The notes: generated from the sequence alone by a model not told the origin. Shown: positions 1,539-49,924, counted from the first letter of the stretch. The stretch: DNA of 64,000 nucleotides from Candidatus Kerfeldbacteria bacterium (GCA_016182555.1 JACPGJ010000004.1:78751-142750), one strand, 5' to 3'. Numbers and translations: made by a program.

Positions 1539-1644
1539 AACATGAATAAGGGGTAGAGTATACCAACTATTCTGAATTTGTCAAGCATTGAAATAGCGTT
1601 GAAATAGATTTTTTCTCGTATGTATTGGCAGCCAACGGAATCCC

Positions 1645-2595: not shown

Positions 2596-2638
2596 ATGCT
2601 GTACTGGTATTGTACGCTTTTTTGCTGAGGAAGCAAAT

Positions 2639-3757: not shown

Positions 3758-3867
3758 TAATAATATAATCTACTCTAGTAGTATGCTCCAAGATACACAT
3801 TGAAGCAACTGGTCGAAATAACCGCTTATTGATAGAATATGGATAATTATTATTAGGCGTATTTTCT

Positions 3868-6614: not shown

Positions 6615-6700
6615 AGTGTTTTATGGTTTTTTTAAAAACCTCTGCAAAAATTATTCACGACTCATGATAGCCATTTTGATATTTCGTTATTCACCTCCAC

Positions 6701-8745: not shown

Positions 8746-8749
8746 AGTA

Positions 8750-9421: not shown

Positions 9422-9424
9422 AAA

Positions 9425-10132: not shown

Positions 10133-10178
10133 TCTTACTGTAGTAAATCTTCAATTTCTCCAGTAATGAAAACCGGTT

Positions 10179-11684: not shown

Positions 11685-11778
11685 AACAATGAAATTAATA
11701 ATTTTTCAATTCTCTTTATTCAATAATATACACTATTTTTTATATAGGAGCAATAGCGATTTCGCTGAATGTAAAACT

Positions 11779-11868
11779 TGGCGGAGAGGGAGGGATTCGA
11801 ACCCTCGAGACCGTTTCGGGCCTAGTCGCTTTCGAAACGACCGCACTCGACCACTATGCGACCTCTCC
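11779..11868 (-). tRNA. tRNA-Ser (anticodon CGA), long variable arm, encoded CCA
   Basis: Reverse complement folds as acceptor GGAGAGG/CCTCTCC, anticodon stem GTCGT/GCGAC with loop TTCGAAA, T-arm GAGGGTTCGAATCCCTC, and 3' CCA. Confidence 0.8.
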
Positions 11869-11950
11869 AAATGTAAAATACGCTTACTGAGCGTACCGAA
11901 AAAAGTCACGGTTGGCAAGACAATGGCAACAGCAAGCAAGCCAGTATCAG

Positions 11951-13201: not shown

Positions 13202-13240
13202 GAAAACAGTTTCTCATGCTTGCTCCCACTGGTCAACTCG

Positions 13241-14686
13241 TCATTTTTTACGTTGTTTCTTTTTTGTGGTCAATGTCACGGGTTCAGAAAATTTGGTTAA
13301 TTCATCGTTAATATAATGCGCACGTAGCTGTACTGTGTATGTATGTTGCGGGCGCATATTTCGCACAATACTTGCTGTAGTGGTATTTGGAATATTGCGT
13401 AATCTGCGAAACAGCTTCCCATTCTTTTTCTTTATTTGCAAGATATATGCAGATACAAAATCATCACTATTCCAACGAATAGTCGCTCGACGCGCCATGA
13501 TCTTCTTTTTAGGAACATGTGGTCGCGTATATTGTTGCTCTGAAATTCGCTGTGCATCTGTGGTTACTGTTGTGGATGACTGCGCCTCGGTTTCACACAC
13601 TGCTGTGGCAGCGATCACTTGTACAATATATTCCATATTCGTATCAAGATTCGTAATCAAATATTCCGTTTCTGGAAAAACAGATATCGTTTCTACCGTT
13701 GTTTCATCAACACTCTTCCACCATGATAGCGTATATGTCGTCGCACTATTCACTGCATCCCATTCCACAGCGATATTTGTTCCAAAAACATTCGCTGTCA
13801 GCCCATCAATAGTTTTTGTGGAACAATCAATACCATCCGTGATTTCAAATACAGCAGATGCCATATAATCCATATCGATACTAACGACAGGCGATGTCGA
13901 GATAGCAGCAACATAATTCCCTTCATCACCGGGGTTCAACACTCCTGATATCACCAAACGAACAGGGCCCGCTGGTATACTATTACTGATATGAATATGA
14001 CCAACAGTGCCATTCTGCTCAGGAATAAATTCCGCCCCTTCCATGATACCAAAATCAACAGTGACATTGGTCAAATCTATTCCCGATGCGGTCGGATTTG
14101 TATTGCCTTCTGGCAGAAGATAGAACCAGATGGTATCTTCTTGGCGAAGTTCTTCTGCTGTCACAAAATCAACTGTATAGGTGACGGGGGCATTATCTGC
14201 GTTGCGCGGAAGATAGGAAGAAGCAGAAAAATCAACGGACAAAATTCGATCATCGTTGACAGCACGTGTCTCTTGTTGGGTGAAAACCATAGCATTCACA
14301 AATGTTGCGCCGACAAGTACAAACGTGGTAGCAATGCCACTTAATCGTAAACCACGGGACCATGAACGATGGTGTGTATACGAATACGTGTAACCACTTT
14401 TCGAGGATGGTTGATGAAAATATTCAAAACTCTGTGCTGGCGATAATACCAACACCGCAAGAGAAAAACAACAAGCATAGATGACATAAAGAAAAAACAG
14501 TTCGATACTTAAAAATAAACGATGCAATGGAAAATGAGCGTGAACAATAGCCTGTTCACTATCAATAATATGGGCATAGACAAACTGCCGCAGAACAATA
14601 AAACCATGAATAATCCTCGACCTCCTCATGGAGTATAGTATATCATAGAGAACAGAAATATATGTACATCTTTCGTTCACTCGCAC
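13241..14686 (-). CDS. Membrane-anchored extracytoplasmic protein with fibronectin-III-like repeats and a short lysine-rich C-terminus
   Basis: TM anchor IATTFVLVGATFV followed by beta-rich repeats and the ending TTKKKQRKK. True start is probably internal (the ORF overlaps the divergent neighbour). Confidence 0.4.
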   Translation of the reverse strand: MRVNERCTYISVLYDILYSMRRSRIIHGFIVLRQFVYAHIIDSEQAIVHAHFPLHRLFLSIELFFLYVIYACCFSLAVLVLSPAQSFEYFHQPSSKSGYTYSYTHHRSWSRGLRLSGIATTFVLVGATFVNAMVFTQQETRAVNDDRILSVDFSASSYLPRNADNAPVTYTVDFVTAEELRQEDTIWFYLLPEGNTNPTASGIDLTNVTVDFGIMEGAEFIPEQNGTVGHIHISNSIPAGPVRLVISGVLNPGDEGNYVAAISTSPVVSIDMDYMASAVFEITDGIDCSTKTIDGLTANVFGTNIAVEWDAVNSATTYTLSWWKSVDETTVETISVFPETEYLITNLDTNMEYIVQVIAATAVCETEAQSSTTVTTDAQRISEQQYTRPHVPKKKIMARRATIRWNSDDFVSAYILQIKKKNGKLFRRLRNIPNTTTASIVRNMRPQHTYTVQLRAHYINDELTKFSEPVTLTTKKKQRKK

Positions 14687-15813
14687 GCGATTCTGCGTTA
14701 CACAAATTACTGTGGGTATGTTTTAGCATCAAATTATTGCACGTGCTCCTGATTATTGTTGTCTATTACTCGTTCGGTATATGGGAACTCGCACGGTCGT
14801 CCAATTTCCTTGCACAGCCTGATGAACTCCGTTCGTTATTGAGCGCATTCACCACCTGGGATGCTCAACACTATATTTTCCTGGCGCAACATTGGTATGC
14901 CCCTGCCCAGCAAAGCAATGCATTCTATCCACTCTTTCCATTGCTCATACGAATGATCACCTTCATTTTTCCACACGTTGCGTTGAATGGTATAGTACTG
15001 GCGAATCTTTTTTCCTGCGTGGCTGTCGTGTTATTCTATTTTTTTGTTCGGAAAATTTATGGAGAAAAAACCGCATTCCGTGCGACCGTGCTGCTGATGA
15101 CATTTCCGATGACCTATTATTTCAGCCTTCCCTATGTGGAGTCACTGTTTTTAACATGCATACTCTTCACATTCATTGGTATCTATACGCACCGGCTGGG
15201 ATTCATCATTTGTGCAGCACTCCTGTTACCATTGGCAAAGCCGCAAGGAATAATTGCTGCGATCCCCATTCTCTATGGTGTATGGGTGCAGTGGAAAGGA
15301 TATGGCCGACCACGATATATCGCCCTGCTACTCACGTTCATTGCATTTCTCATCTCTGCGGCAACATATTTTTTTCTCATGCACGTATTTGCCGGCTCAG
15401 CGTTGGCAGGGTTTGCAGCGCAACAATATTTTGATACCAATTATTCCGTAAACAATCTTTTACACCCACTGGCCTGGCTCCACCGTAATATATTCAACTT
15501 ACACCTCACTATCTATTTAGATCCAAACAACAGTGTGAGCAACCGCATATTCTTTTTCTGTTTTTTAACCTTGGTGTATGGCGCTGCTCGCTATACAGAC
15601 AAGATACAAACGTTCTATCTAGCATTCCTTGGTTGCTTTGCTGCGTTCACTGGCGACCTCGCCTCTTTCCCACGATATCTGCTTGTCTTATTCCCCATCT
15701 ATATTGTCCTAGCTCAACGCTACGAAAAAAAATATTGGGTGGTGGCGAGCACAATGTTCGTGTTGCAGCTGCTGTATCTCACGCTGCACAGCATGAATTT
15801 TTGGGTGGCATAA
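14662..15813 (+). CDS. Polytopic membrane protein, possible GT-C-fold glycosyl/mannosyltransferase
   Basis: About 10 predicted TM helices, with a conserved acidic loop near the N-terminus (TWDAQHY). Confidence 0.35.
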   Translation: MYIFRSLARDSALHKLLWVCFSIKLLHVLLIIVVYYSFGIWELARSSNFLAQPDELRSLLSAFTTWDAQHYIFLAQHWYAPAQQSNAFYPLFPLLIRMITFIFPHVALNGIVLANLFSCVAVVLFYFFVRKIYGEKTAFRATVLLMTFPMTYYFSLPYVESLFLTCILFTFIGIYTHRLGFIICAALLLPLAKPQGIIAAIPILYGVWVQWKGYGRPRYIALLLTFIAFLISAATYFFLMHVFAGSALAGFAAQQYFDTNYSVNNLLHPLAWLHRNIFNLHLTIYLDPNNSVSNRIFFFCFLTLVYGAARYTDKIQTFYLAFLGCFAAFTGDLASFPRYLLVLFPIYIVLAQRYEKKYWVVASTMFVLQLLYLTLHSMNFWVA

Positions 15814-15872
15814 GTGGCATAAAATGTGAGTAGCTTTGCCGCAGATGCAATAGCAGAAACATTCACCAAATG

Positions 15873-15898
15873 AAAAACCCTTCCGAAAAGGAAGGGTT
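15873..15898 (-). terminator. Rho-independent terminator downstream of 5S rRNA
   Basis: Hairpin CCCTTCC-GAAAA-GGAAGGG followed by a U-run in the - sense, immediately 3' of the 5S gene. Confidence 0.55.
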
Positions 15899-15904
15899 GA
15901 TCAT

Positions 15905-16013
15905 AAACTGGCAGCGACCTACTTTCACCCGAAAGCTATCATCGGCGCTAAAGAGCTTAACTGCTGTGTTCGGAATGGGAACAGGTGTGACCTCTTTGCT
16001 AGAACCACCAGAA
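15905..16013 (-). rRNA. rrf: 5S rRNA
   Basis: Reverse complement contains CCTGTTCCCATTCCGAACACAGCAGTTAAGC...GCCGATGATAGC...AGTAGGTCGCTGCCAG. Confidence 0.8.
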
Positions 16014-16388
16014 ATTCGGCGGCGTACAACATAAAATATGTTTTCACGTAGCGCGCACCGAGTTTCTGGTGGCTCTTATTTTGCTGCCAGTAACACTGTT
16101 GGTTGTACAAGAACGAATACGGTGCCAATGACGATGGTCAATGTGAGAAAGAGTCCCACAAATTTCCATGCCACGGCGTACGTTTTCAATGTCTTCATAC
16201 GGACAAGTAAAAATATTCTCTAAAACAAATACGGTGTAGTAGTACAGTATACATCAATTTTCGCCAAACGCAAGTGATACCCACTACGCGTCGGGAATAT
16301 GCTATTAGTACTCCTCAGCTTCACCCCTTGCGGGGCTTCTACTTGGAGCCTATCAACCTGGTCGTCTTCCAGGAGCTTACGAAATCTA

Positions 16389-16433
<45 letters not shown>

Positions 16434-16564
16434 AACCGAAGGTCGCTACCCGGCAATGCAGCTGGTGCTACAACCGGTACACGAGAGCTTCGTCCTTTTC
16501 GGTCCTCTCGTACTAGAAAAGGATCCCCTCAAATTTCAACGCCCGCAACGGATAGGAGACCGAC

Positions 16565-17331
16565 ATTCTGTTACTTTGCTAACCACATCAAGTACGGTGA
16601 GTGCGCGGTGGTGGATTGATGCGAATCAATCTCTGCATGTCGCCATGCAGTTCGGACTATATCTTTATCGCAGTTATTACTGCGACGTTTCGCGTATAGT
16701 CTCTGAGGATTCTACGATACGTATCAGATCTTGTTGCGCAACCTTTCTTCGCTTACCAGAGTCGTTCATCTGATACGCTGTTGTGATAATGCCTTTTGCA
16801 CCAACACCAGTTTGGTGTTTCCCTTCATTCATCATGTGCACTACTTTTGCAAAGAATTGAAAATCCTTAGCTTTCATAGTACGTAATGAATACTGTTGAA
16901 AGAATGGAATGATGCGTTTGAGCAAATCATCACGATTGCGGACAACATACACGTATGTATGATCTGTTTTGCTTCCACGATGGTTGACTTTGATATATCC
17001 GCATTGAAAAAATTGTTGCAATTCTTCCAATACGATTTTTGATGGGGAATTTTGTGATACATGAAATTCCGGTATCACTTTCAATTGTGTTTTCATCCGT
17101 TCATCTTTATACAAAGCGATATGAAAACTTCCTTCTCCATCTACCAAACCAACGATATACCATGGATGCGGTAATCGTAGCCTTTCCTGCTGGTTGTCTG
17201 CACTCAACACATTTTCACTTGCCATAATTGAATTATAGCAGAGTAGTGTGAGATTCACGAGTCCTCTATTTCTCCAATAGGACTCTTCAGAGTTTCCAGC
17301 ATATAGCGAAATTTATAGACAGCACAAATCT
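16565..17331 (-). mobile_element. Putative group I intron in 23S domain V (near E. coli L2593) carrying a homing endonuclease ORF
   Basis: The conserved exon block GATAGGGACCGAACTGTCTCACGACG is split by about 767 bp. The flanks rejoin into canonical 23S sequence. Confidence 0.7.
16677..17258 (-). CDS. LAGLIDADG homing endonuclease (intron-encoded)
   Basis: YIVGLVDGEGSFHI motif. The ORF lies wholly inside the intron on the rRNA strand. Confidence 0.8.
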   Translation of the reverse strand: MNLTLLCYNSIMASENVLSADNQQERLRLPHPWYIVGLVDGEGSFHIALYKDERMKTQLKVIPEFHVSQNSPSKIVLEELQQFFQCGYIKVNHRGSKTDHTYVYVVRNRDDLLKRIIPFFQQYSLRTMKAKDFQFFAKVVHMMNEGKHQTGVGAKGIITTAYQMNDSGKRRKVAQQDLIRIVESSETIRETSQ

Positions 17332-17375
<44 letters not shown>

Positions 17376-17953
17376 TGGCGAACAGCCAAACCCTTGGGAG
17401 CTGCTTCACCCCCAGGATGCGACGGGCCGACATCGAGGTGCCGAACCTGGTCGTCTATGTGAGCTATTGGACCAGACTAGCCTGTTATCCCCGGAGTAAC
17501 TTTTATCCGATGAGCTTCCGCCGTCCTATTTCGTACGGTCGGATCACTAAGTCCTACTTTCGTAACTGCGCGACTTGTAGGTCTTGCAGTAAAGCTGGCT
17601 TGTGCCTTTACACTATCGGTTCGATTTCCATCCGAACCTAGCCAACCTTTGTGAACGCCTCCGTTACCTTTTAGGAGGCATCCGCCCCAGACAAACTACC
17701 CACCAGACACTGTCCCCTCGCCGGATTCACGGCTAAAGGTTAGATATATCAATCCGTCAGGGTGGTATCTCACTGGTGACTCTGGAAGCGCCGAAGCGCC
17801 CCTTCAAAGTCTCCCACCTATACTGAGCAAACAAATTCATATACCAATCCCAAGTTGTAGTTAAGCTTCACGGGGTCTTTTCGTCATGCTGCGGGTAGCC
17901 AGCATCTTTACTGGCCCTGGAATTTCGCCGAGTCCCTCGTTGAGACAGTTTTC

Positions 17954-18006
<53 letters not shown>

Positions 18007-18007
18007 C

Positions 18008-18264
18008 AAATATTACATCACATTTTTAATAAAATGTCAATGTCTTCTTTCGAAGCTGCATATCGCTATGCAGATTGGACTATATCTTCTCTAAATAATT
18101 AGAGTTTGGCGTGTAGTCTCTGAGGATTCTTGCTTTCAATCAAGAAAACAAGTCTTTCCTGCTGATTGTCTGCACTCGACGCATTGTCACTGATATAAAT
18201 CAGTAGCGCGAGATACACAGATATTCCAGCATATAGCCAAATTTTACTAAGGCAGCATTTTTCC
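18008..18264 (-). mobile_element. Putative ORF-less group I intron at 23S L1931-like site
   Basis: Interrupts GGAATTTCGCT|ACCTTAGGAC. Shares conserved core elements with the other two introns (CTGCATATCGCTATGCAGxTxGGACTxTATCTTC and TAGTCTCTGAGGATT). Confidence 0.55.
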
Positions 18265-18274
18265 ACCTTAGGAC

Positions 18275-19039
18275 GATTCGTATTGTTACTCTTTTGAGGA
18301 GTCTCCGCATAGTACTACGGAACTGCATATCGCTATGCAGGTCGGACTCTATCTTCTTCGTTCTCTTCTTTATGAAGAGCGATGTCTAACGTATTAGTCT
18401 CTGAGGATTTTCTTGGCAGAACTGTTCATAGTCCTGTAATGCATATTTCCGTGTTCTTCCTTTCCCTTCATTTAGCTTTTCTCGTAATTCCATAATCTGC
18501 TGCAAACCATCACGCTCAAGATGTCTCTTATTCGTAACGAGTTGTGCAATTTGTTTGAAGATCATGAAATTTCGTTGTTTTTTCTGAGAACAAAAAGTAA
18601 ATCGTTCAAAAAAAGGAATGACCCTTTCCGTGATCGAACGCGGATTCACAACGACGTAATAATATACGCCGTCTTTTCTTGATTGAAGACGCCCACACCC
18701 GAGCAATTTTTTAAATTGCGCAAGAATGTATTCTTCCTTTTGAGAAACATTAAAACATAATTCTGTTTGCCAACCTATTTGATGATCTGGTCGTTTACGT
18801 ATGGATACGTTAAAACTTCCTTCACCATCAGTAAAGCCTGCAAAATAATGTCCCTTCTCTGGAGGAATGGTCTTCAACCATTCTTCTATTGTTGGTTGCA
18901 TATGTTCAAGAATCTTTCCTGCGGATTGTCTGCTGCTCTGGCATAGAGCTGATCATTGATTTTTACTGCCGTTTCAAACGACGAGTACAACGATATTAAG
19001 CAGAGTTTCCCGCAAATAGTTAGATTTTATAACTACAAT
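18275..19039 (-). mobile_element. Putative group I intron at 23S L1921/1923-like site (helix 69/71 junction) carrying a homing endonuclease ORF
   Basis: Splits GGAC|CGTTTTTATAGTTATCGCC (E. coli GGACCGTTATAGTTACGGCC). Separated from the previous intron by an approximately 10-nt exon. Confidence 0.65.
18386..18901 (-). CDS. LAGLIDADG homing endonuclease (intron-encoded)
   Basis: FAGFTDGEGSFNVSI motif. Contained within the intron. Confidence 0.8.
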   Translation of the reverse strand: MQPTIEEWLKTIPPEKGHYFAGFTDGEGSFNVSIRKRPDHQIGWQTELCFNVSQKEEYILAQFKKLLGCGRLQSRKDGVYYYVVVNPRSITERVIPFFERFTFCSQKKQRNFMIFKQIAQLVTNKRHLERDGLQQIMELREKLNEGKGRTRKYALQDYEQFCQENPQRLIR

Positions 19040-20489
19040 CGTTTTTATAGTTATCGCCGGCGTTCATCCGCGCTTCAGTTGCAAGCTTCGCCCCGAAGGG
19101 CTAACCCGCTTCCTTAACGTTCGGACACTGGCCAGGCATCAGCCCCTATACTTCAGCTTACGCTTTCGCAGGGACCTGTGTTTTTGGTAAACAGTCGCTT
19201 GAAATCTTTTACTGCGGCCTTGATTGCTCAAGGCAGGCCTTATCCCGAAGTTACGGCCGTTGTTTTGCCGAGTTCCTAAACGAGGGTTCTCTCGTACGCC
19301 TGAGGATACTCTCCTCGCCCACCTGTGTTGGTTTACGGTACGGTTACCATAGATCACGCGTGCGCACCTTTTCTTGGCCCATTGTCAACCTGTCTTGAGC
19401 TTGGGTTTCCCCGTACTCTTGTCACACTGTTTTGCAACAGCGCAAATGCCCCAGTCCATGAGGGCACACACACCTTCAACATGCGTCAGTACGCACAAAT
19501 CTATGGTAGGGACGGAATATTAACCGTCTGTCCATCGACTACGCCTTTCGGCCTCGCCTTAGGACCGCCTAACCCTAGGTCGATCATCGTTGCCCAGGAA
19601 TCCTTGGGCTTACGGCGTCATTGATTCTCACAATGATTTTTGCTACTCATGCCGACATTTTCGCTTCGCTACGCTCCATCGGCCCTCACGGGTCCAACTT
19701 CATTGCGGTAGCAAATGCTCCTCTACCGATTGTTCATCATAAATGATGAAGCAATCCCACAGCTTCGGTACTCTGTTTAGCCCCGTTACATTTTCGGCGC
19801 AAAGTAACTCGACCAGTGAGCTATTACGCTTTCTTTAAAAGATGGCTGCTTCTAAGCCAACTTCCTGGTTGTTTGAGTCACGATACCACCTTTAACACTT
19901 AACAGAGTTTAGGGACCTTAGCTGGTGATCTGGGCTGTTTCCCTTTTGACGTGTGAAGCTTAGCCCCCACAGTCTGACTTCGATAATAGTCTCTTCCGGC
20001 ATTCGGAGTTTGGTTAGGCAGGATATCTTGCGACTCCAAGCCCATTCAGTGCTCTACCTCCGGAAGGTAGTTTATCAAGCTATCCCAAAAGATATTTCGA
20101 GGAGAACCAGCTATTTCCGAGTTCGATTACAATTTCTGCGCTAACCACAGCTCATCCCCAGGCGTTACACGACCTGTGGGTTCGGGCTTCCCCTACCTGT
20201 TACGGCAGGTTCACCCTGGCCATGGCTAGATCACTCGGTTTCGGGTCTATAACGAACGACAATAATTCTACTCAATACTGGTTTGCGGCAAAGCCGCACC
20301 CAGTATTAAATAGAAAATCGCGCTATTCACACTCGGTTTCCCTATGACTTCTCCCTATGCGGGATTAATCGTGCCGTTCGTAATAACTCGTCGGCTCATT
20401 CTTCAATAGGCACACCGTGACACAGCCTTGCGGCCGTGCTCCGATTTATTGTAAGCACATGGTTTCAAATACTATTTCACTCCCCTTCC

Positions 20490-20532
<43 letters not shown>

Positions 20533-21343
20533 ATCATTATACGTATTTAGCCTTACCGCATAGTCGCGGCAGATTCACATAGGATTTCTCGTGTCCCATG
20601 CTACTTGAGGACAGAAACCATAGAGTAAGTGTGCATTTCATGTACGGGGCTATCACCGTCTTTGGCTAGGCATTCCAGCCTATTCTATTACACACACTTC
20701 TTTTTTCTCTATCTCCGGTAAACCGGAACGTCTCTGCCTCGCAACCCCACAAATGATTTAAAAAATTACTCATGGTTTGGGCTTCTCCCCGTTCGTTCGC
20801 CACTACTAAGGGAATGCAATTGTTGTTTCTTTTCCACCAGGTACTAAGATGTTTCAGTTCCCTGGGTCTACTCCTATACGCCTATGTATTCAGCGCATGG
20901 TTCTGCAGGTGTACTGCAGAGGGTTGCCCCATTCGGATATTCCCGGATCAAAGCTTGCTTGTCAGCTCCCCGAGACTTTTCGCAGACTGCTACGTCCTTC
21001 ATCGTCGTATAATGTCAAGGTATCCACCATATGCTCTTACTTCCCGACGCAAAGTTGATACTCTTGCGTCTAATCATTGTAGTTGTATCAGTATCTTCGC
21101 ACAATTTGGATTCGACGAAATTTTGATGTTGTCCTCTATGCGCAGGATGGGGCATAGAGAACGTCTGTATCTTCTATATATATGGCGCATGGCGTTAATA
21201 TGCCCATATATCAATTGATGTCTTTGAGAATATTCACTTGTCAATGAACAGGTGTGCTGAAACGGTGACTAATACAGTATTTTCAGCACAGATCTACCGC
21301 TCGTTGTTTGCGTGGAGGCAGGTCTGCGATGAAAATGGGGCAC

Positions 21344-21856: not shown

Positions 21857-23355
21857 TTAATACGCTCGAGCAAAGATAACTTGCTCAGAGGTTGCCGCAT
21901 TACAAATCATACACTTGCCATTTTGTTGCTGTTTTTCAAATGGAATACACCGAATAGTGGCTTTTGTTTCTTCTTTGACACGTGTTTCGCATTCCGCACT
22001 GCCACACCACAACGCCAAAAAGAACCCACCAGTTTCAATTTGTGTTTTGAAGGTTTCATAGGAATCCACCGTTACTGTACGTTCTTGTAGTCGCTGCTGT
22101 GAACTTGCAAATAGGGCTTTTTGCATCGCTTCAAGAACTGTGGAAATTTCTGAAGCCACCTGGTCAATTGCCACCGACTTTTTCTCGCCGGTATCACGCC
22201 GAGCCATCATCACCTGGTTCTGTGCCAAATCGCGTGGGCCAATTTCTATACGTACCGGCACACCCTTTTTCTCCCAGCCATATACTTTTGTGCCGAATGT
22301 TTCATAATCGCGAGCGTCTATATGCACACGAACACCAACGTGCTGCAACTGTTCACGCAATGCACTCACCTGTTCCATAACCGCTGCTTTCTCTTCTTCT
22401 TTTTTCCAGAGTGGCAACACCACCACTTGATACGGCGCGATTTCCGGAGGCAATACCAAACCCTTGTCATCACTGTGGGACATAATCAGTGCACCCATCA
22501 AACGGGTGCTTACTCCCCAACTCGTCATCCAACAATATTGTTGTTGGTTGTCTTGATCTAAAAATTTCACTTCAAATGCTTTGGCAAAATTCTGTCCCAA
22601 ATTGTGCGACGTTCCCGATTGCAATGCCTTGCCATCTTGCATCATGGCTTCAATGGTATACGTGCGCAGTGCTCCGGCAAACCGTTCAGATTCCGATTTT
22701 TCACCTGGTATCACTTCCATAGCCAGAACTTCTCGCGCAAACCACGCATACATATCTAACATTTTTCGTGCTTCCTCTTCGGCGTCAGCTTCTGTAGCGT
22801 GTGCAGTGTGTCCTTCTTGCCACAAAAATTCGCTGGTGCGTAAAAACAATCGCGTTCGCATTTCCCAACGCACCACATTTGCCCATTGGTTAATGAGCAA
22901 TGGCAAATCACGCCACGATTTAATCCAACGTGCAAATGCTGCATGAATCACGGTTTCAGAAGTTGGCCGCACAACCAATTCTTCCTCTAATTTCGATTCC
23001 GGGTCAACCACCACTCCTTCACCATTCGGGTTATTCATTAACCGATGATGCGTCACCACCGCGCATTCCTTCGCGAATCCTTCCACATGTGTTGCTTCAC
23101 GACTCAAAAACGACTTGGGAATAAACATTGGAAAATACGCATTCTGATGACCGGTTTCTTTAATTTTGTCGTCGAGGATGTGTTGCATCCGTTCCCATAT
23201 CGCATATCCGTAGGGTTTGATAATCATGGTGCCTTTCACATCACCATGTTCGGCTAAATCTGCAGCGGCAATAATATCTAAATACCACTGCGCATAATCT
23301 TGCGCGCGGGAGGTGATGGATTGTGCGTGTTGTGCTCGGGTGTGTTGAGTGACCA
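21857..23355 (-). CDS. proS: Prolyl-tRNA synthetase, archaeal/eukaryotic-like class II type with C-terminal zinc-binding domain
   Basis: Class II core motifs and a C-terminal CGSAECE...C..C zinc domain. The N-terminal 101 codons of the listed ORF are probably not translated (start MVTQHTRAQ at 23355). Confidence 0.85.
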
Positions 23356-23456: not shown

Positions 23457-25697
23457 ATGCGCAAATATCTCTTTTTTTCTTTTATATTCGTGCTTTTTTT
23501 TACTGTGACGCCTACGGTTTCTGCGCAAGTATGTCTTAACCCATTAGATGAAACCATTGAAACAATCGACATCGGCACCGCCGTGGGTCTAGAAATAGCA
23601 ACAGGAACAACAGAAACAGAAACTAATGATGTCGTTGGTTCGTGTGGTGGGGATGACATGCCTGATGTGGCATTTTTATGGACAGCACCTTACGATGGAG
23701 AATACCAAATAGATACAGAAGGGTCATACTACAATGTGCTCATGTATGTCTTAGATAGCAATTCATGTTCAACGGCAATAGAGTTAGCTTGTTCAGACAA
23801 TTATGCGTCATCTACGTTCATTTCTTCGGTCAATATTACCGCTGTTACCGGTCAACAATTTATTATTGTGATCGATGGCTATTATGATCCTGCAGAAGGT
23901 GACCCGACTTTTGGGAAGGGGGCGTATGATTTGAACATTGAGCTCCTGCATGACCTGGATGAAGATGGATATGTGCATGTTGATTACGGTGGTAATGATT
24001 GTAATGATTCAGATCGAAATGTGCATCCGGGAGTGGCAGATGTCTATAATAATGAAGATGATGATTGCGATGGAACGGTGGACGAAGATAAGGTAGATGG
24101 TGATAGTGATGGGTATTATGATGGATATATACTTGATGCGGACTGTAATGATAGTGATGTAACTATTCATCCGAATGCCTCAGAAGTTGTGTATGATGGT
24201 ATTGATCAAGATTGTGATGGAATAGATGACTTCGATATGGACAATGATGGGTATGGTATTGATACTGTTACAACGGGTTATGACTGTAATGATAGTGATG
24301 TGACTATTCATCCGAATGCCTCAGAAGTTGTGTATGATGGTATTGATCAAGATTGTGATGGATTAACAGATGAAGATGATACGTTTGTTCTTTCTTCGGC
24401 CACGCCGGTTGCTGTTCCACCAGATGATGCATCGACTCCTGAGGTAGAAACCACGGGTACGACAAGCGTAACCTTTACTATTGATGAGAGTTACCCTATT
24501 ACGGATATTGATCTTCTTTTGGATATTACCCATACATATCTGAGCGATTTACAGATGCGGCTCATTTCTCCGCAGGGAACATCTGTATATCTGAGCTATC
24601 AAATATTGATGTCCGGAGAAGAATTGAATCAAATAGTATTTGATGATGCGGCCTATCGGAATATTGATGATGCCAGCACTCCTGCTTCTGGTGCTTTTCA
24701 ACCAGTTGAGCCACTTGCATTATTGAATGGTGAAATGAGTGCTGGCACTTGGACATTGGAGATTATAGATGTGGGTCAAGCTGATTATGGCACATTAAAT
24801 GAATGGGCACTGCGCATGAGTGTGGATACGGATGAAGATAATGATACCTATTTTACTACTCCCATGAGTGGTTCAGATTGTGATGATCATAATGCCCAAG
24901 TATATCCTGATGCAACGGAGATTCTTGATGGTATTGATAATAACTGTGATGGGGTGGTCGATAATATTATTGAAGTGCCCTCGGATCCGCCAATAGAAAC
25001 GCCCGTGGAAACACCGGCATCGGAAAACAATACCACCGTTGATGCCAATGAACCACCACCAAGTAATGAAACGCCCGGTGAAAATACGGAAAATGAATTA
25101 CCGGTAGAAAATGATGAGTCAGATGATGCGACTACTGGTACAAATACTTCGAAAGCGGAAACGATTTTTGTGACAACATTACGCCCAACGAAAAGAGGCG
25201 TTCGGGTATGGTATTCCAATGACACCTCTCATGTATTCAAGCTATTTAAACGTCGTGGGAAAAAACGTACGCGCCTGATAATCATGAACGATCGTTTGGC
25301 AATGGTTGTTCACGCTAATGGCAAACACGGAGTATTATTTCAATATGTGAAAGGGAAGATACGTTCTCGAAAAAAACTTTCTTCATTACGAGCAAAAAAT
25401 ACTCGTATAAAGAATGTTCGCATAAAGAAAAAACGATATATTGTTGTGACGGCAAAAAAGAAAAGGAAGATGCAGGCCAGTCTTTCTATTCTTCGCGTGA
25501 AAATGAAAAAAAAGCGGCTGGGCAAAGTTCGATTTATGGTGCTTCATCATGCAAAAGCAAAAAAAATCGCTCCAAAAAAAACGCGTATTCATAAACGATT
25601 TATCTATCTACGCAACAAACACGCCCATCGTTTATTTAGATTGAAATTCAAGAAAACAAACCGTTTATTCTTATTGCCAAAAAAACGCTCCTCCTAA
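23457..25697 (+). CDS. Secreted multi-domain protein: signal peptide, PPC-like domain, five or more MopE-type metal-binding repeats, proprotein-convertase P-domain, acidic linker, approximately 150-aa polybasic tail
   Basis: Signal MRKYLFFSFIFVLFFTVTPTVSA. Repeats CNDSDxxxHPxAxExxDGxDxDCDG. P-domain DIDLLLDITHTYLSDLQMRLISPQGT...GTWTLEI. C-terminus about 35% K/R. Confidence 0.6.
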   Translation: MRKYLFFSFIFVLFFTVTPTVSAQVCLNPLDETIETIDIGTAVGLEIATGTTETETNDVVGSCGGDDMPDVAFLWTAPYDGEYQIDTEGSYYNVLMYVLDSNSCSTAIELACSDNYASSTFISSVNITAVTGQQFIIVIDGYYDPAEGDPTFGKGAYDLNIELLHDLDEDGYVHVDYGGNDCNDSDRNVHPGVADVYNNEDDDCDGTVDEDKVDGDSDGYYDGYILDADCNDSDVTIHPNASEVVYDGIDQDCDGIDDFDMDNDGYGIDTVTTGYDCNDSDVTIHPNASEVVYDGIDQDCDGLTDEDDTFVLSSATPVAVPPDDASTPEVETTGTTSVTFTIDESYPITDIDLLLDITHTYLSDLQMRLISPQGTSVYLSYQILMSGEELNQIVFDDAAYRNIDDASTPASGAFQPVEPLALLNGEMSAGTWTLEIIDVGQADYGTLNEWALRMSVDTDEDNDTYFTTPMSGSDCDDHNAQVYPDATEILDGIDNNCDGVVDNIIEVPSDPPIETPVETPASENNTTVDANEPPPSNETPGENTENELPVENDESDDATTGTNTSKAETIFVTTLRPTKRGVRVWYSNDTSHVFKLFKRRGKKRTRLIIMNDRLAMVVHANGKHGVLFQYVKGKIRSRKKLSSLRAKNTRIKNVRIKKKRYIVVTAKKKRKMQASLSILRVKMKKKRLGKVRFMVLHHAKAKKIAPKKTRIHKRFIYLRNKHAHRLFRLKFKKTNRLFLLPKKRSS
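24141..24361 (+). repeat. Near-identical tandem duplication inside the MopE-repeat gene (two approximately 90-bp copies, 1 mismatch, 141-bp period)
   Basis: GACTGTAATGATAGTGATGT(A/G)ACTATTCATCCGAATGCCTCAGAAGTTGTGTATGATGGTATTGATCAAGATTGTGATGG occurs twice. Confidence 0.7.
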
Positions 25698-25818
25698 TGA
25701 TCACGTGACCCCAATATCCTTCCGAAATATCAAGGCATGGCTGTTGCATGGAAGGATGGAAATAGTAAAATCAGTTATTGAACAGTCAATGTGACAAAAA
25801 CCTGGTATACTATGGTGT

Positions 25819-26865
25819 ATGTATACCATCAAACGCATTCTTCCCAAAACCAAACCCTGGAAAACTGGGTTCACGTGGGTATTCGCTGCAGCGATTGGTT
25901 ATGGTACCTCTATCATCATTCAACGATTTAGCACATTTCCAACATATCGTACGCAACCGGTATTGGCAGAAATTTTTGGAGACACTATTCAATTACAACA
26001 CGCGCTCATCATCGCGCTGGTCATTATCAGTGTGGTTATCGCTCTGGAGCTACAACAAATACGCTTCTTCGCCAATCCGTATAGCCAGATTGTTCACGAA
26101 GAGTTGCGCAACTTTACCCGGCTGTTTCAATTACCCATCCAAACCAAACCGCATGTCGGCATTTCAAAAAAACAATTGCTCTTGCTCGGGTTTTTTCTAC
26201 CGATTGGTATTGTCGTGTGGGTGTCACCAAAAATATTTAACCGTATCGCGCTCGACCCTGGTATAACGCGCTATATCGCCGTGGCCGTTAGCATACTCTA
26301 TCTGCTCGGTTTAATCATTTGGTTTGTTTCGCTTTTTCGTAAACGCAAACAAGACGGAGTAACAATTTTGAATGATATCTGTGCACGCGTGCAAGGGAGG
26401 GATGGTTCAACACAATTGCATCCGCAAATGCTTGGCGATTATCATATACCACTGCGAAATTTTCAGCTGGCAGTTGACGGATTGTTCCGTGGACGGCGGG
26501 TGTTATGTAGCGCTCGCGTGAATGACACTGGGATAGAAGCACGGACAGCATTTAGCACGTATCACCAAATGCGCATACACCAACTCGCCATTCATGAGCG
26601 GAACCCAGAATGGAAAACACTGAAAGGACGTGATGTAAATGACTGTTTTCAGAAACGTTTTGAAGTGGTGGGCATGGAGGCGCAATATATTCCACAGCAA
26701 CTGAAAGAATTACTGGTTCGTGCACCGCAACCTATTCACCTCAATCTGAGTAACCAACAAATTATTTTTGAAAATACCCACGCTCTGCCGTTCTATTCTA
26801 TAGAAGGATTATTCGTTTGGCTCCATCTGTGCAACCAAATAGTTTCTTCGGTGGAACAGATATAG
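25819..26865 (+). CDS. Hypothetical membrane protein (4 or more TM) with an approximately 170-aa C-terminal soluble domain
   Basis: Hydrophobic helices at aa 15-35, 55-75, 125-145 and 160-185. No known motifs. Confidence 0.4.
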   Translation: MYTIKRILPKTKPWKTGFTWVFAAAIGYGTSIIIQRFSTFPTYRTQPVLAEIFGDTIQLQHALIIALVIISVVIALELQQIRFFANPYSQIVHEELRNFTRLFQLPIQTKPHVGISKKQLLLLGFFLPIGIVVWVSPKIFNRIALDPGITRYIAVAVSILYLLGLIIWFVSLFRKRKQDGVTILNDICARVQGRDGSTQLHPQMLGDYHIPLRNFQLAVDGLFRGRRVLCSARVNDTGIEARTAFSTYHQMRIHQLAIHERNPEWKTLKGRDVNDCFQKRFEVVGMEAQYIPQQLKELLVRAPQPIHLNLSNQQIIFENTHALPFYSIEGLFVWLHLCNQIVSSVEQI

Positions 26866-26883
26866 AATAATCAGCATGTGGTG

Positions 26884-27588
26884 CTATGCCTCGTTGTTCT
26901 GCATCAAGCGCAACAAAAACAACGTTTCGCTTTTCAATTTCGTTTTCGCCCAGGCTTTTTGTTTTGGGTCAAGAAGTTCACCCATGCCATCTAAAATTTT
27001 TGTGTCATCAAATTTTTCCAGCTTCACAATACATTTTTCTAAAAATTCTTTAAACGACAACCCCGACCGTTGCTCAACGAGCTGTGTATTGATTTCCCAA
27101 TTATTTTTTGCAAAAAACCACACATCAAAAATATCGCGATTTGATCTACCCATACGCTCAAACATCGCCATCAACTTATTCGCAAACATATCTTCTTGAA
27201 TCATGACCAGTAACGAAATGCCCATATACGATTTCAGTTCATACCGCGATCCAAAATTTCGTCGGTTAATTTCAACTTTCACATTCTGCGCATCTGTTTT
27301 TTTGCCATAATACGAAACGAGATAAAATAGATTGAACCGTTTTTTTTCTGCATTTTTGATGTTGCCAAATTGCTTTAAAATTTGTTCAACGCGTGCAAAT
27401 ACCTGGTCCTCTTTCGCCGAATCAAGCAAGTCAAAATCCAGATCAACCGAGTGACGATTCAATCCATAAAATAGATACGCCGCCGTACCACCCTTGAATC
27501 CTAAAAATGGACCAATAGTGTTGTCGGAATAAATTGCGGTCAATATTTGAATGAGAACACTTTTGTGAGTAGCGGGGTTGAGAACCAT
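26884..27588 (-). CDS. AbiEii/AbiGii-family nucleotidyltransferase toxin (type IV TA, abortive infection)
   Basis: GGTAAYLFYGLNRHSVDLDFD nucleotidyltransferase motif. Immediately downstream of an AbiEi-like gene. Confidence 0.7.
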   Translation of the reverse strand: MVLNPATHKSVLIQILTAIYSDNTIGPFLGFKGGTAAYLFYGLNRHSVDLDFDLLDSAKEDQVFARVEQILKQFGNIKNAEKKRFNLFYLVSYYGKKTDAQNVKVEINRRNFGSRYELKSYMGISLLVMIQEDMFANKLMAMFERMGRSNRDIFDVWFFAKNNWEINTQLVEQRSGLSFKEFLEKCIVKLEKFDDTKILDGMGELLDPKQKAWAKTKLKSETLFLLRLMQNNEA

Positions 27589-27591
27589 AAT

Positions 27592-28176
27592 TTATTTCGT
27601 CGCTTGATAATAATCATAATATTTTTGCACAGTCTTCACCATTTTTTTATTTTCATACAGAGGAAGTAGTGCAAATACTTTTTCCCAATCCAATGGAGAA
27701 AGATTGTCGAAATAATAATCTTTACTTCGGTAAATCGTATCAAGAAAAGCACGTTCCGTTATTGCTATTGGGTATTGTTCGCTTTGATCAATACCCGCAG
27801 GGTTGATAAGTGTGTCGAATTTGATTGTACGAAATGCGTATTCTTGTCCGTCGCAGATGATATCACGATTCACATAAGAAGCGACAAAAATTTGGCCGTA
27901 ATATTGAAAGGTGATACCCGCTGCACCAAGAACAGTTTCAAAACTGATATATGCTGGGCGAAGAATATTTGTTGCAAGTTCATATCTACTATATTCATAA
28001 TCTTTTGCATACACACCTTTGCGTACATGAATCAACTTTCCACTTTTTATATAAGAATGCAAACGAACACGAGCAGCGTTCATGCTTTTTTCGCGCCACA
28101 ATAACGCAATATCTTTGGTGGTAAAGATCGTTTTTGGCGAACGAAGCAGTATATCTAAATAATCCCCTCTCTTCAT
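27592..28176 (-). CDS. AbiEi-family antitoxin / transcriptional regulator
   Basis: wHTH N-terminus with the RKGVYA motif. 3-bp spacing to the cognate toxin. Confidence 0.6.
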   Translation of the reverse strand: MKRGDYLDILLRSPKTIFTTKDIALLWREKSMNAARVRLHSYIKSGKLIHVRKGVYAKDYEYSRYELATNILRPAYISFETVLGAAGITFQYYGQIFVASYVNRDIICDGQEYAFRTIKFDTLINPAGIDQSEQYPIAITERAFLDTIYRSKDYYFDNLSPLDWEKVFALLPLYENKKMVKTVQKYYDYYQATK

Positions 28177-28305
28177 AATTCTACTGAAAATTAGCTTAAT
28201 GCTAATATACAGTATAATTATATATCATTTCGTCATTTTATGCAAGTCCACTTGCTTTTTGCTGGTTAGGATATAATACATTTTTGTATGATATCTAACT
28301 GCTAT

Positions 28306-29151
28306 CTACAATTTTTCTTCAACTTCTCTTAAGATGATTTCTTTCATGTGCACACCAATGTTTTTACTAAATTGTTCATCTTCTATAAACGCTGCTAAAT
28401 CAAGCTGAATACTACGCGTATCAACCTTCCTCACTATCTCCAGCAACCGCTTTTTTAACTCGCTCAAATTTTCTATTCCCTGAATACACTCCATATTCGG
28501 TTGTACGCCTTTTTGCAAATACCACATCAAGTCAAAATAATCTCTGCCTTTTACGGTAATAATTGTTTTCCCCGATCGGTCTGTCTTCTCCCATTTGCGA
28601 TTCAACACCGCATTTATTTTTGACGCCATGAGTGTGGGCAAATCAAATGTCCGCACAATAATAGATTTATTTTCTATAAACAACGGCATGAATTGCATTT
28701 GATATTTTGGGCAATAATCAAATACCGGACAAATTTCTACTTTCACAAACAACTGGTCAGATTCACTGGCATCAGCCGCCCCCAGCTCATGCAAAATATC
28801 GAATTTCACATAGATACGAAATTTTTGAATTTTTGTTTTTACGCGCACATCGGTGTTCTTCGCAAAAAAGTGTTCAATGTCCTTTGCGAGCGTTGGTAAC
28901 GAAATACTCGCATTCATATCTACAAAATCTAAATCTTCTGACAATCGGGGCAGGCCAAAACAATGCGCTAAACAGGTACCGCCATAAAAATATAATTCAG
29001 TATATGGCGGTGTTGAATACAAAAAATCTAACAACAAAATTTGCAAATAGCGCTTGAGCTTATTTTTTGTGAATGCGGCATTGTGCGTACCAGATTCATG
29101 AATAATAGCACGCAAATTCGCCAATGTATTTTCCATAGATTTAATTTTCAA
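28306..29151 (-). CDS. AbiEii/AbiGii-family nucleotidyltransferase toxin (second copy)
   Basis: FYGGTCLAHCFGLPRLSEDLDFVD. Confidence 0.7.
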   Translation of the reverse strand: MKIKSMENTLANLRAIIHESGTHNAAFTKNKLKRYLQILLLDFLYSTPPYTELYFYGGTCLAHCFGLPRLSEDLDFVDMNASISLPTLAKDIEHFFAKNTDVRVKTKIQKFRIYVKFDILHELGAADASESDQLFVKVEICPVFDYCPKYQMQFMPLFIENKSIIVRTFDLPTLMASKINAVLNRKWEKTDRSGKTIITVKGRDYFDLMWYLQKGVQPNMECIQGIENLSELKKRLLEIVRKVDTRSIQLDLAAFIEDEQFSKNIGVHMKEIILREVEEKL

Positions 29152-29791
29152 TCATATATTTTCCGATATCTTGCAGGTGTTTTGACTGCGCTTGCTTGAT
29201 AAAGCTTCGAAATTCTTTTTTATCCTTTTGTGTCAGCTGATCGGTATTTATACGAAGCGCATCGATGGCGGTCGCATCAAAAAGCAGATGCTGTCGTAAG
29301 TAGAGAAAATCAAACAATGCTTTAGCTTTCGTTGCCTGTTGCACAGAGAAACCACCAATCATTTTTTTTGTGAACCCATGAAACAATCCGGACTTGATAC
29401 TGTGGTAGTTAAACTGACCAAACGCATTCTGGAATGTTTGCGTTTTTCGTGTGCTGATAGATGTGTAGTGCACCGGCATTTCGGTCAACAGATGATATTC
29501 AAACAACATATATTCCAGGCTCAAATATGACGGTTCATATAACAGATTTGCCAGGAATGATTTATACCCGTTGAAACGTTGTGTCTTTTCCAGTCTATCA
29601 ATATATTCGGGGGCAACGTAGAGCCCACGTTTTAATCGAACAAGTTTACCTTTTTTTGCATAACGCCCAAGAAGGATTTTGAGATACGTTGTATCCTGCT
29701 CTATGGGAGAAATATCTGCTAATGTAAAGGCTGGCAAATTTTTTACCACCTCATAAATTGTATGAATTCGTGAATTTCTATTGTTTCTCAT
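29141..29791 (-). CDS. AbiEi-family antitoxin (second copy)
   Basis: VRLKRGLYVAPEY motif. Overlaps the downstream toxin by 11 nt. Confidence 0.6.
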   Translation of the reverse strand: MRNNRNSRIHTIYEVVKNLPAFTLADISPIEQDTTYLKILLGRYAKKGKLVRLKRGLYVAPEYIDRLEKTQRFNGYKSFLANLLYEPSYLSLEYMLFEYHLLTEMPVHYTSISTRKTQTFQNAFGQFNYHSIKSGLFHGFTKKMIGGFSVQQATKAKALFDFLYLRQHLLFDATAIDALRINTDQLTQKDKKEFRSFIKQAQSKHLQDIGKYMIEN

Positions 29792-30066
29792 AATATACTT
29801 AAATAGTATACCAAAAGAAATGATTTGTCAAATGCGCCAACGCACTGCCACTTCGTGATGCGTTCGCGCTCAAACTGCCGTCACTGCAAGATTTTTCAAT
29901 AATTTCAAAAACGTGTATGCTGCATGGGGCCTCATGTAGACGCCCAGTTGTACCTGGTTATTCCGCCAGCTGCAGGCTGTATACGGCCGCCAGGGAATCC
30001 CCCCAGGCGCGCCCTGCCGTTCTCAGACCCTGTGGCGAGAATTTCCTCGTCACATTCTTAGGAGTG

Positions 30067-31218
30067 GATACCGTTACCTTTTGGGTGCGTGAATGATTGA
30101 TTTTTTGGCTAATGTATGCTAATATTTGATGGTTTAACTAGTTAAATAGCGTATAATGGTAAAAAAAACAGAATCCGTATTGTCCAAAATGTGAGAGCGG
30201 ATCAACAATCAAACGCGGGAGCCGTGGTGGTTTGAAACGATATTCTTGTCAGAGCTGCACAGGCTCTTTTTCAGTTGATCATCGACGAAAAGAAGCCGTA
30301 TTGTGGGTTCCGCATATTAATGGGATACCATTTCGAAAACTCGGTGATGAGCGAGGAATGTCAGGAAAGCAAGCATACACTCGTGTGTTTGTAGAACTCG
30401 GTACTCTTCCAGACAATACAGTGCTCACTCAAAAATACTGTACCTACACGTCAGGTATCCTCATCATTGATGGGAAATATGTGAAGGTGCGAGGATACAA
30501 ACAAAAGATTCCATTTATCTATGCCATAGATTATGAAACGCATGATATTTTGTTTGGTATCCTTGCAGCTTCAGAAGACACTGAAGCATTCTTGGAGTGT
30601 TTTCGTATATTGAAACAACTGAACTATCCATTACGTGTTGTGGTTGCTGATGATCGATCGAGCCTGCCAATAGCGCTGAAACAGATATATCCAGATATCC
30701 CGCTTCAACTTTGTCAGAATCACTATATTGAAAATATTAGAAAACTTCTTCACATTCGATCTGAGACAACACACCAGCATTTCTTCAATTCACTCAAGAA
30801 ACACGTCTTTGATGAATACTCCAATGATGAAAAATTGAATACTGCATTACACCATGTACTCACACAGAGGTGTGAAAACATGGAGATTCGTCAAACAATC
30901 GTTATGGAAATCGATCGAAGACGAACAGAACTCTTTACGTATCCCACAATCCCAAATTGTCCCAAAGACACCAACCTCATTGAACTATTCAATTCTCACT
31001 TCAATGCACGGATCAAATCGCTCAAGGGATTCAAAACTCTTCTCCATGCAACTCTCTGGCTCAATGGTCTTCTTATTCGTAGAAGAACAAAACCATTCAC
31101 TGATTGCTCCCCTAAATTCAAGCATCTCAATGGTAAATGCTCTCTCCAAATGTCTATCAAAAAACAGGCTCACTGGCCTGAAATTCTCGGTCTAAAAGCA
31201 CCCAAAAGGTAACGGTAA
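30067..31218 (+). mobile_element. Complete insertion sequence (about 1.15 kb) with approximately 20-bp terminal inverted repeats and a 10-bp target-site duplication
   Basis: IRL GATACCGTTACCTTTTGGGTGC versus IRR GCACCCAAAAGGTAACGGTAA (reverse complement matches 20/22). Flanking direct repeat CTTAGGAGTG at 30057-30066 and 31219-31228. Coordinates +/-3. Confidence 0.65.
30232..31212 (+). CDS. DDE transposase with N-terminal zinc ribbon
   Basis: Candidate DDE triad at IIDGKYV, VVVADDRS and CQNHYIEN. The CPKC..CQSC zinc ribbon begins upstream of the only in-frame canonical start (TTG), so the start is uncertain. Confidence 0.55.
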   Translation: MKRYSCQSCTGSFSVDHRRKEAVLWVPHINGIPFRKLGDERGMSGKQAYTRVFVELGTLPDNTVLTQKYCTYTSGILIIDGKYVKVRGYKQKIPFIYAIDYETHDILFGILAASEDTEAFLECFRILKQLNYPLRVVVADDRSSLPIALKQIYPDIPLQLCQNHYIENIRKLLHIRSETTHQHFFNSLKKHVFDEYSNDEKLNTALHHVLTQRCENMEIRQTIVMEIDRRRTELFTYPTIPNCPKDTNLIELFNSHFNARIKSLKGFKTLLHATLWLNGLLIRRRTKPFTDCSPKFKHLNGKCSLQMSIKKQAHWPEILGLKAPKR

Positions 31219-31233
31219 CTTAGGAGTGAAGCT

Positions 31234-31635
31234 ATGAATACGAAAACGAAGAGCCTATCGATGTCCACCTGTTCCCATCTCGACGCACTCAAAGCATCGC
31301 TCGAAGTCAGGAGGCTGGCGTTTGTCGGTCACCGGATCGACCCGGAGAACAATGCATTGTGCGCTCCGAGGCTCCCCGAGCCCAATCTCGTCCGCGTCTT
31401 CGGCCGACCAGCCAATTTCGATGAATTGGTAGATGTGTGGATGAGCGACGTGGGAACGTTTATCGTAGCCCCAAAGGGAACCACGATAAAGTTCGATAAA
31501 TACACGTGGGTTCAGGTGGATGGCGAGACGCTGGAGATGGCGGCCCGGTATGAGATCGGGTTGGTCACAAGCTTATACAACAGCACGTTCTGTACGATCA
31601 TGTGGTTGCCTCCCCACATGATCAATTTTTTCTGA
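31234..31635 (+). CDS. Hypothetical protein encoded in a GC-rich (about 57%) foreign-looking segment. Its RBS lies inside the IS target duplication.
   Basis: ORF starts 5 nt after the TSD CTTAGGAGTG. Composition is distinct from the flanking DNA. Confidence 0.3.
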   Translation: MNTKTKSLSMSTCSHLDALKASLEVRRLAFVGHRIDPENNALCAPRLPEPNLVRVFGRPANFDELVDVWMSDVGTFIVAPKGTTIKFDKYTWVQVDGETLEMAARYEIGLVTSLYNSTFCTIMWLPPHMINFF

Positions 31636-31947
31636 TGCGGGGAAGGTGTGAGCGTCAGCCTTTCTGGTGCTTCGTCTGCGTTGGTAAGGAGTCCGCCTGT
31701 GCAAGACGAGTTAAGCGACTCAAGTACACGCAAGCCAATCGCGTGTGCGAGGGGTGAATGAGATTGATGCATTTTGTATCTCTCTATCATCCCTTGGCTT
31801 CTGTGCTCATCTGTCGTTGCAGGTGAATAGAGAAGGGTTCACAAGAACATTCTTGTGAGTAAACACATTCCGCAGGAAACGAAAACGAGTTTCATCGATT
31901 ATTTGTCAGCGTTAACAAAAACGAACGAGGTACCTAGTAACTATCTG

Positions 31948-32032
31948 TGGTGCCGGGGAAGAGACTCGAACTCTTATGTCTTGCGACACCAGCTCCTAAG
32001 GCTGGCGTGTATACCAATTTCACCACCCCGGC
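31948..32032 (-). tRNA. tRNA-Leu (anticodon TAG), long variable arm, encoded CCA
   Basis: Reverse complement is GCCGGGG...CCAGC-CTTAGGA-GCTGG...AAGAGTTCGAGTCTCTT-CCCCGGC-ACCA. Confidence 0.8.
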
Positions 32033-49292: not shown

Positions 49293-49313
49293 ACTATTCA
49301 TCCGATCATCACT

Positions 49314-49892: not shown

Positions 49893-49924
49893 TCCGTGCT
49901 GGAAATTTCAGCCGCTCTATTCTG

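Follow-up and report, generated by a model that had tools for sequence, protein, structure and literature searches.

Two divergent AbiE toxin-antitoxin operons beside a tRNA-Leu gene in a Candidatus Kerfeldbacteria genome

A stretch of 64,000 nt (hereafter the window) from a metagenome-assembled genome (MAG) of Candidatus Kerfeldbacteria, a lineage of the candidate phyla radiation (CPR), was analysed around a locus with two AbiE toxin-antitoxin pairs (GCA_016182555.1 JACPGJ010000004.1:78751-142750). The locus holds two ordinary AbiE toxin-antitoxin/anti-phage modules, each with an antitoxin gene (AbiEi) followed by a toxin gene (AbiEii). An earlier note on this DNA had described two complete AbiEi-AbiEii cassettes of divergent sequence, placed head-to-tail; this observation is correct, and it is of a kind already well known and automatically annotated in the public record, in which both toxins are named 'nucleotidyl transferase AbiEii/AbiGii toxin family protein'. 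The reading that we hold to be fairly probable as a whole is that of two independent, intact AbiE operons that were acquired separately, lie side by side 3' of tRNA-Leu and would work in the manner of their characterised homologues.

Five open reading frames (ORFs) were found at the locus, at 25819-26865 (+), 26884-27588 (-), 27592-28176 (-), 28306-29151 (-) and 29141-29791 (-). An independent per-run assembly (locus L001, SRR12113422) was 100% identical to the window over 7,684 bp (24333-32016), a span that contains both AbiE cassettes and the neighbouring insertion sequence (IS), and the arrangement is therefore not an artefact of MAG assembly. Placement by hidden Markov model (HMM) searches in the DUF1814/AbiEii and AbiEi families had been named in the earlier note as the check on its claim, and PADLOC places all four minus-strand ORFs there, with matches far above chance and over nearly the full length of the proteins. 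All four genes are full length in comparison to their homologues.

The toxin of the first pair, AbiEii-1 (26884-27588, minus strand, 234 aa), was matched to PADLOC model PDLC02324 (E 6.5e-72, residues 6-231) and to Pfam PF08843 (E 2e-18), and that of the second, AbiEii-2 (28306-29136, minus strand, 276 aa), to PDLC02293 (E 1.3e-32) and PF08843 (E 3.3e-21); both are predicted nucleotidyltransferases of the DUF1814 type. The PF08843 scores were 67.6 and 76.8 bits, against a Pfam gathering score of 22.5. The start of AbiEii-2 is most likely the ATG at 29136 rather than the TTG at 29151, which would give 281 aa, since the best 120 homologues are mostly 275-276 aa long and the public gene call is 276 aa; with this start, 3-4 nt separate the antitoxin stop from the toxin start in both operons. 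Homologues of AbiEii-1 numbered 5,844 at E<=1e-10, the best being 71% identical and from Patescibacteria, and those of AbiEii-2 numbered 1,650, the best 86% identical, with a 61% relative in another Kerfeldbacteria genome. These thousands of homologues were spread over Patescibacteria lineages, Gracilibacteria, Babeliales, Elusimicrobiota, Armatimonadota and others. On viruses, a pattern scan of IMG/VR recovered no AbiEii relatives, and on plasmids there were only relatives of 27% identity or less.

For the analysis of motifs, 30 homologues of each toxin subtype were aligned jointly (60 in total). Columns invariant over both subtypes comprised the GG of motif I, R-x-S-x-D-L-D of motif II, K-x-E, K..A...R of motif III and R-D-x-x-D of motif IV. 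They correspond to G33G34, R45-x-S47-x-D49-L-D51, K104-x-E106, K138..A141..R145 and R151-D152-xx-D155 in AbiEii-1, and to G52G53, R64-x-S66-x-D68-L-D70, K132-x-E134, K173..A176..R180 and R198-D199-xx-D202 in AbiEii-2. In the AbiEii of Streptococcus agalactiae, toxicity is abolished by mutation of G49, R63, D67, D69, K173, R180 or D192 (PMC3985639), and counterparts of all these residues are present in both window toxins and invariant in the 60 homologues. The same holds for the serine two residues past the motif-II arginine, Ser47 in pair 1 and Ser66 in pair 2, which aligns with T65 of the S. agalactiae toxin (register R63-x-T65-x-D67). T65 undergoes phosphorylation when AbiEi is present and is the equivalent of MenT3 S78 (bioRxiv 10.64898/2026.01.19.700257).

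The antitoxins/repressors, also on the minus strand, are AbiEi-1 (27592-28176, 194 aa; PADLOC PDLC02255, E 1.4e-55, residues 5-187) and AbiEi-2 (29141-29791, 216 aa; PDLC02241, E 2.7e-48, residues 13-214). The AbiEi-1 stop lies 3 nt ahead of the AbiEii-1 ATG, and the layout of the two operons, with the antitoxin first and gaps of 3 and 4 nt, is repeated in homologous loci (L017-L022 and L031-L033). In the S. agalactiae AbiEi, the loop residues D85/E86/I87 are conserved and required for neutralisation; the sole candidate for such an antitoxin loop in the proteins studied here is a conserved Y-x-S-x-E-x-x-L at residues 76-83 of AbiEi.

Both operons are preceded by a promoter and a palindrome. 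For pair 1, the palindrome ACTG-N4-TTAGC-N5-GCTAA-N4-CAGT (28183-28213, minus strand) was first found as a 21-nt inverted repeat; the start codon is on one side of it and a perfect TATAAT (28217-28222) on the other. It occurs once in the window, had no match in 100 shuffles, and its half-sites are conserved upstream of two homologous operons (L017 and L033). For pair 2, the promoter and candidate operator (29794-29831, minus strand) consist of TTGACA (29826-29831), a spacer and GTATACT-N5-AGTATA (29794-29811) running into the ATG; the promoter scored 10/12 in the scan, and the palindrome occurs once in the window, where 0.06 occurrences are expected. The arrangement TTGACA-N16-GTATACTATTTAAGTATATT-ATG is near-invariant ahead of four type-2 operons with toxins just 61-73% identical, and farther upstream the sequences of these four loci do not align. 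Autoregulation of AbiEi through inverted repeats in the promoter is described in two earlier studies (PMC3985639, PMC7319586), and by analogy the two palindromes are good candidates for AbiEi operators. Because their motifs are unrelated, the two operons are probably regulated independently. A GC-rich hairpin, GCAAGTCCACTTGC, was also observed between the operons at 28242-28255, overlapping the -35 region of pair 1; it is terminator-like on the plus strand only, where TTTTT follows, and both flanking operons are on the minus strand.

The toxins of the two pairs are 22% identical to each other and the antitoxins 29%. At every homologous locus examined, each AbiE type was found singly among unrelated housekeeping genes and never beside the other type. 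This low identity, the closer relatives in other organisms and the single occurrence elsewhere make two separate acquisitions, and not a duplication, the simplest reading of the sequences. The pairs are accessory, as indicated by their GC content (0.36-0.38, against 0.428 for the window) and by comparison to the closest relative that a metagenome PolA scan yielded (locus L023, PolA 61% identical), whose tRNA-Leu/LTD/PolA locus keeps tRNA-Leu(UAG), the LTD protein and PolA and has no AbiE; L023 differs on the other side of the locus, so that an exact empty site is not definable. In a separate observation on Kerfeldbacteria RIFOXYA2_FULL_38_24 and related contigs (loci L020/L022, positions 1-16800), a type-2 pair is embedded in an array of unannotated paralogues, about eight in number and 550-600 aa in length; about 7 kb from that pair lies another AbiEii gene, with an ORF of 68 aa upstream of it.

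The label 'type IV' used in the earlier note follows the classification of 2014 and is dated: a 2026 preprint describes the AbiE toxin as a pyrimidine-specific tRNA nucleotidyltransferase, shows that the antitoxin induces its auto-phosphorylation, and moves the system from type IV to type VII (bioRxiv 10.64898/2026.01.19.700257). Taken over from characterised homologues, the tRNA target, the control by phosphorylation, the autoregulation and the phage defence would combine here as follows. The first gene encodes AbiEi, presumably of the COG5340 type and with a winged-helix domain for DNA binding. AbiEi most likely represses transcription from its own promoter by way of the conserved palindrome that separates the -10 element from the start codon, and most likely neutralises the toxin by causing it to auto-phosphorylate on the motif-II serine (Ser47 or Ser66). 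AbiEii, encoded by the second gene and predicted to be a DUF1814 nucleotidyltransferase of the pol-beta type, would in its unphosphorylated form most likely add nucleotides at tRNA 3' ends and thereby stop translation. A phage that disturbs the antitoxin would then cause growth arrest and abortive infection.

Several results weigh against this account. The Pfam model AbiEi_4, a winged helix-turn-helix domain, was matched with 20.6 bits by AbiEi-1 and 21.4 bits by AbiEi-2 (E 4.8e-4 and 2.8e-4), under its cut-off of 25, and the NCBIfam equivalog TAA_AbiEi with about 30 bits (E 4.9e-7 and 1.7e-7) against a cut-off of 150. Searches of the PDB, with phmmer single-sequence queries and a 6-sequence profile, detected no similarity of either AbiEi to solved AbiEi structures. 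An AlphaFold2 (AF2) model of AbiEi built from 2 sequences was unusable (pLDDT 37), and the two-domain fold and antitoxin loop are therefore presumptive. The toxins are distant from characterised ones, plasmid-borne AbiEii included (27% identity at most), and their matches in the PDB were unnamed structural-genomics proteins only. In Escherichia coli, the S. agalactiae AbiE failed to protect against any of 32 coliphages, and MenT4 is not phosphorylated (both bioRxiv 10.64898/2026.01.19.700257). Defence or phospho-control is not to be taken for granted in each member of the family.

The explanation that competes best with a defence role is that the same AbiE modules persist as selfish addiction or stabilisation cassettes, acting through post-segregational growth arrest and playing no part in phage defence in this host. 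We regard it as a possible though unlikely alternative. It agrees with the stabilisation of plasmids by AbiE (PMC3985639), with the protection against 0 of 32 phages by the S. agalactiae system, with the scattering of both subtypes, singly and amid housekeeping genes, over many lineages, and with the lack of any reported enrichment of AbiE in defence islands (PMC12259885). However, the AbiE of Lactococcus lactis and the related RlegTA and SanaTA do affect phages, and CPR bacteria are reported to face intense pressure from phages and to have AbiE as one of their most frequent defence families (PMC12259885); in the same survey of groundwater MAGs, AbiE ranked among the five commonest defence families and CPR genomes were dense in defence systems. 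Addiction and defence are not mutually exclusive.

On the 3' side of the tRNA-Leu gene is a variable stretch of 6 kb, which the separately acquired, intact operons share with an IS256-family insertion sequence of 1,153 bp (30067-31219, plus strand). The IS has perfect 20-bp terminal inverted repeats (30069-30088 and 31198-31217; 0 expected) and is flanked by a 9-bp duplication of the target, TTAGGAGTG (30058-30066 and 31220-31228). The transposase (30232-31212) belongs to the Zn-binding variant (NCBIfam IS256, E 4.6e-15; IS256_Zn_var, E 1.8e-11; Pfam Transposase_mut, E 5.7e-10), and an exact-sequence look-up of it returned no record. The likeness to the family consists of profile matches, terminal inverted repeats and the 9-bp duplication, whereas the element scores 55 bits against an equivalog cut-off of 150 and is only 1,153 bp long. 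It is the only copy within the window, intact and active-looking.

This element is located about 275 bp upstream of pair 2, and CPR genomes are streamlined, both of which would fit one or both cassettes being decaying, non-functional relics. Against this, the four genes are full length, the invariant residues and both promoters and operators are intact, and the IS lies beyond the pair-2 promoter; we therefore consider decay improbable. The GC-rich spacer at 29840-30066 had no Rfam match to a structured RNA (z-scores 0.17 and -2.15).

Between the IS and the tRNA gene lies an orphan ORF of 133 aa (31234-31635, plus strand), with a GC content at third codon positions of 0.70, against about 0.40 in its neighbours. 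The IS256 element is inserted in its Shine-Dalgarno region. No match to this ORF was found in Pfam, NCBIfam, PADLOC, PHROGs, PDB, plasmids or phages, and it looks like foreign DNA. The tRNA-Leu(UAG) gene itself (31948-32032, minus strand; ARAGORN and Rfam) has its 3' end towards the variable stretch. The Pfam, NCBIfam and PADLOC scans returned no integrase, and no significant direct repeat derived from the tRNA (att) was present at the locus; a tRNA-integrated genomic island was accordingly rejected. The flanking genes examined all belong to the housekeeping or surface-protein class, among them those for prolyl-tRNA synthetase (ProRS), a MopE/P-domain surface protein, the LTD protein, PolA, DUF2207 and UvrB. 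In the flanking genes scanned with PADLOC there was no defence system besides AbiE, PolA matching a polymerase model and UvrB helicase models, and a multi-system defence island was likewise rejected, AbiE occurring alone, twice. ProRS (21857-23299), compared to GTDB species representatives, gave Bacteroidota-like matches only (47-71% identity) and none from Kerfeldbacteria; its nearest counterparts there are Bacteroidota enzymes at 58-71% identity, which hints at horizontal acquisition or shared ancestry.

Since two random insertions side by side are unlikely among about 1,000 genes, a locally permissive insertion site is a reasonable inference. The earlier note had proposed accretion in a defence hot-spot. 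This is partly supported: it is favoured by the separate acquisition, the foreign-like GC content and the 6-kb variable stretch by tRNA-Leu with its intact IS and high-GC orphan ORF, and weakened by the flanking genes scanned having no defence system other than AbiE and by the lack of island enrichment of AbiE in the groundwater survey (PMC12259885). The region is a small variable stretch with two AbiE modules and an IS rather than a typical defence island, and a hot-spot is a plausible, if modest, idea.

On the other side, the AbiE modules are bordered by the gene of a 348-aa membrane protein (HYV32_01555, 25819-26865, plus strand), which is a neighbour of the modules and not part of them. 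A word-indexed search of 5.8 billion proteins returned only the protein itself, and an exhaustive HMMER search of 1.84 billion cluster representatives recovered 29 relatives of 19-37% identity, mostly of 300-380 aa. Because these distant relatives align over the full length, the ORF is a real gene of a rare unannotated family. An AF2 model from the family alignment (pLDDT 84.5, pTM 0.80) predicted four transmembrane helices and a beta-rich C-terminal domain, and the distribution of Lys and Arg (positive-inside rule) suggests that both termini are cytoplasmic. An amphipathic helix of the family carries an invariant Glu that in most cases has a Lys after it, and the C-terminal domain is conserved as I-x-E-K...W..I.G...DDCF..RF ... 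PFYS.EG..LFLDFL. No fold match was obtained at E<=1e-3 with Foldseek against PDB and BFVD; the protein had no Pfam, NCBIfam, PADLOC or PHROGs match, and a Pfam scan of 23 family members gave scattered noise only.

The 18-bp gap to AbiEii-1, the convergent orientation and the lack of a known function or fold match could be taken to favour the suggestion of the earlier note that this protein is a further defence component. The gene is convergent to AbiE, however, and so not co-transcribed with it, its GC content is host-like (0.446, against 0.36-0.38 for AbiE), and PADLOC and PHROGs yielded no match. Co-occurrence also fails. Five homologue neighbourhoods contained a transaldolase, an acyltransferase, an orotidine monophosphate (OMP) decarboxylase of pyrimidine biosynthesis with DnaJ and EamA, ClpB and IMPDH, respectively, and neither AbiE nor any other recognised defence system, a lone PIN-domain gene (locus L013) being the one toxin-like neighbour; conversely, the homologous AbiE loci lack the 348-aa gene. 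We conclude that it is a resident gene bordering the insertion site by chance. A wider proposal, in which the protein founds a rare unannotated family and its abutment reflects a functional link as membrane sensor or effector, or in which the tandem non-cognate AbiE modules cross-regulate each other, is given little credence, and a role as extra defence component acting with the AbiE pairs marginally less. The weakest alternative, that one AbiE operon was duplicated locally and the copies then diverged, has the shared orientation and immediate adjacency of the pairs in its favour and is excluded by their low identity and by relatives in other organisms that are far closer (71% and 86%), as well as by the different PADLOC subfamilies matched and the differing operator motifs, which leaves its probability negligible.

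Elsewhere in the window, the 23S rRNA gene (region 15906-21050) spans 3,754 nt, against a model of 2,925 nt, and contains a group I intron at 18056-18297 and, at 18386-18901, an ORF for a LAGLIDADG endonuclease. Another LAGLIDADG ORF (16677-17258) is located between the 5S and 23S genes, and there is no 16S gene in the window. At 48306-50293, the PADLOC PsyrT model is matched over its C-terminal half (E 2.4e-17) by a 328-aa protein with no Pfam match, and the cyclodipeptide synthase family (PF16715) over its N-terminal half (E 6.6e-15) by the gene that follows.

The locus documents a streamlined CPR genome with two independently acquired AbiE modules, an active-looking IS and a tRNA gene. Its value is mainly one of correct annotation, and it fits published surveys of groundwater MAGs in which AbiE ranks with the most frequent defence families. 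Two CPR-rich AbiE subtypes with conserved operator motifs and an invariant phospho-acceptor serine broaden the sequence basis of the type VII model, and a small membrane-protein family is flagged that is unannotated and has no detectable fold relative.

Among known systems, the AbiE of S. agalactiae and L. lactis resembles the window pairs in being bicistronic with the antitoxin first, in its DUF1814/COG2253-type toxin with motifs I-IV, in the hydroxyl residue at the phospho-acceptor position and in the promoter palindromes. The window proteins differ in their great sequence distance, in the Ser that replaces the Thr acceptor, in operators placed between -10 and ATG in an almost leaderless layout, and in their CPR host. 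MenAT3 and MenAT1 of Mycobacterium tuberculosis have toxins of the same DUF1814 superfamily; MenT3 has a Ser phospho-acceptor (S78) and a COG5340 antitoxin, and MenT toxins modify the acceptor ends of tRNA. The likeness of MenAT3/MenAT1 to the window pairs is one of shared motifs only, no direct sequence match having been obtained. SanaTA and RlegTA, which have an anti-T7 phenotype, likewise combine an upstream antitoxin with a DUF1814 toxin that has Ser or Thr at the equivalent site (SanaT S65, RlegT T71); at 136 aa, SanaA is much shorter than the window antitoxins of 194 and 216 aa.

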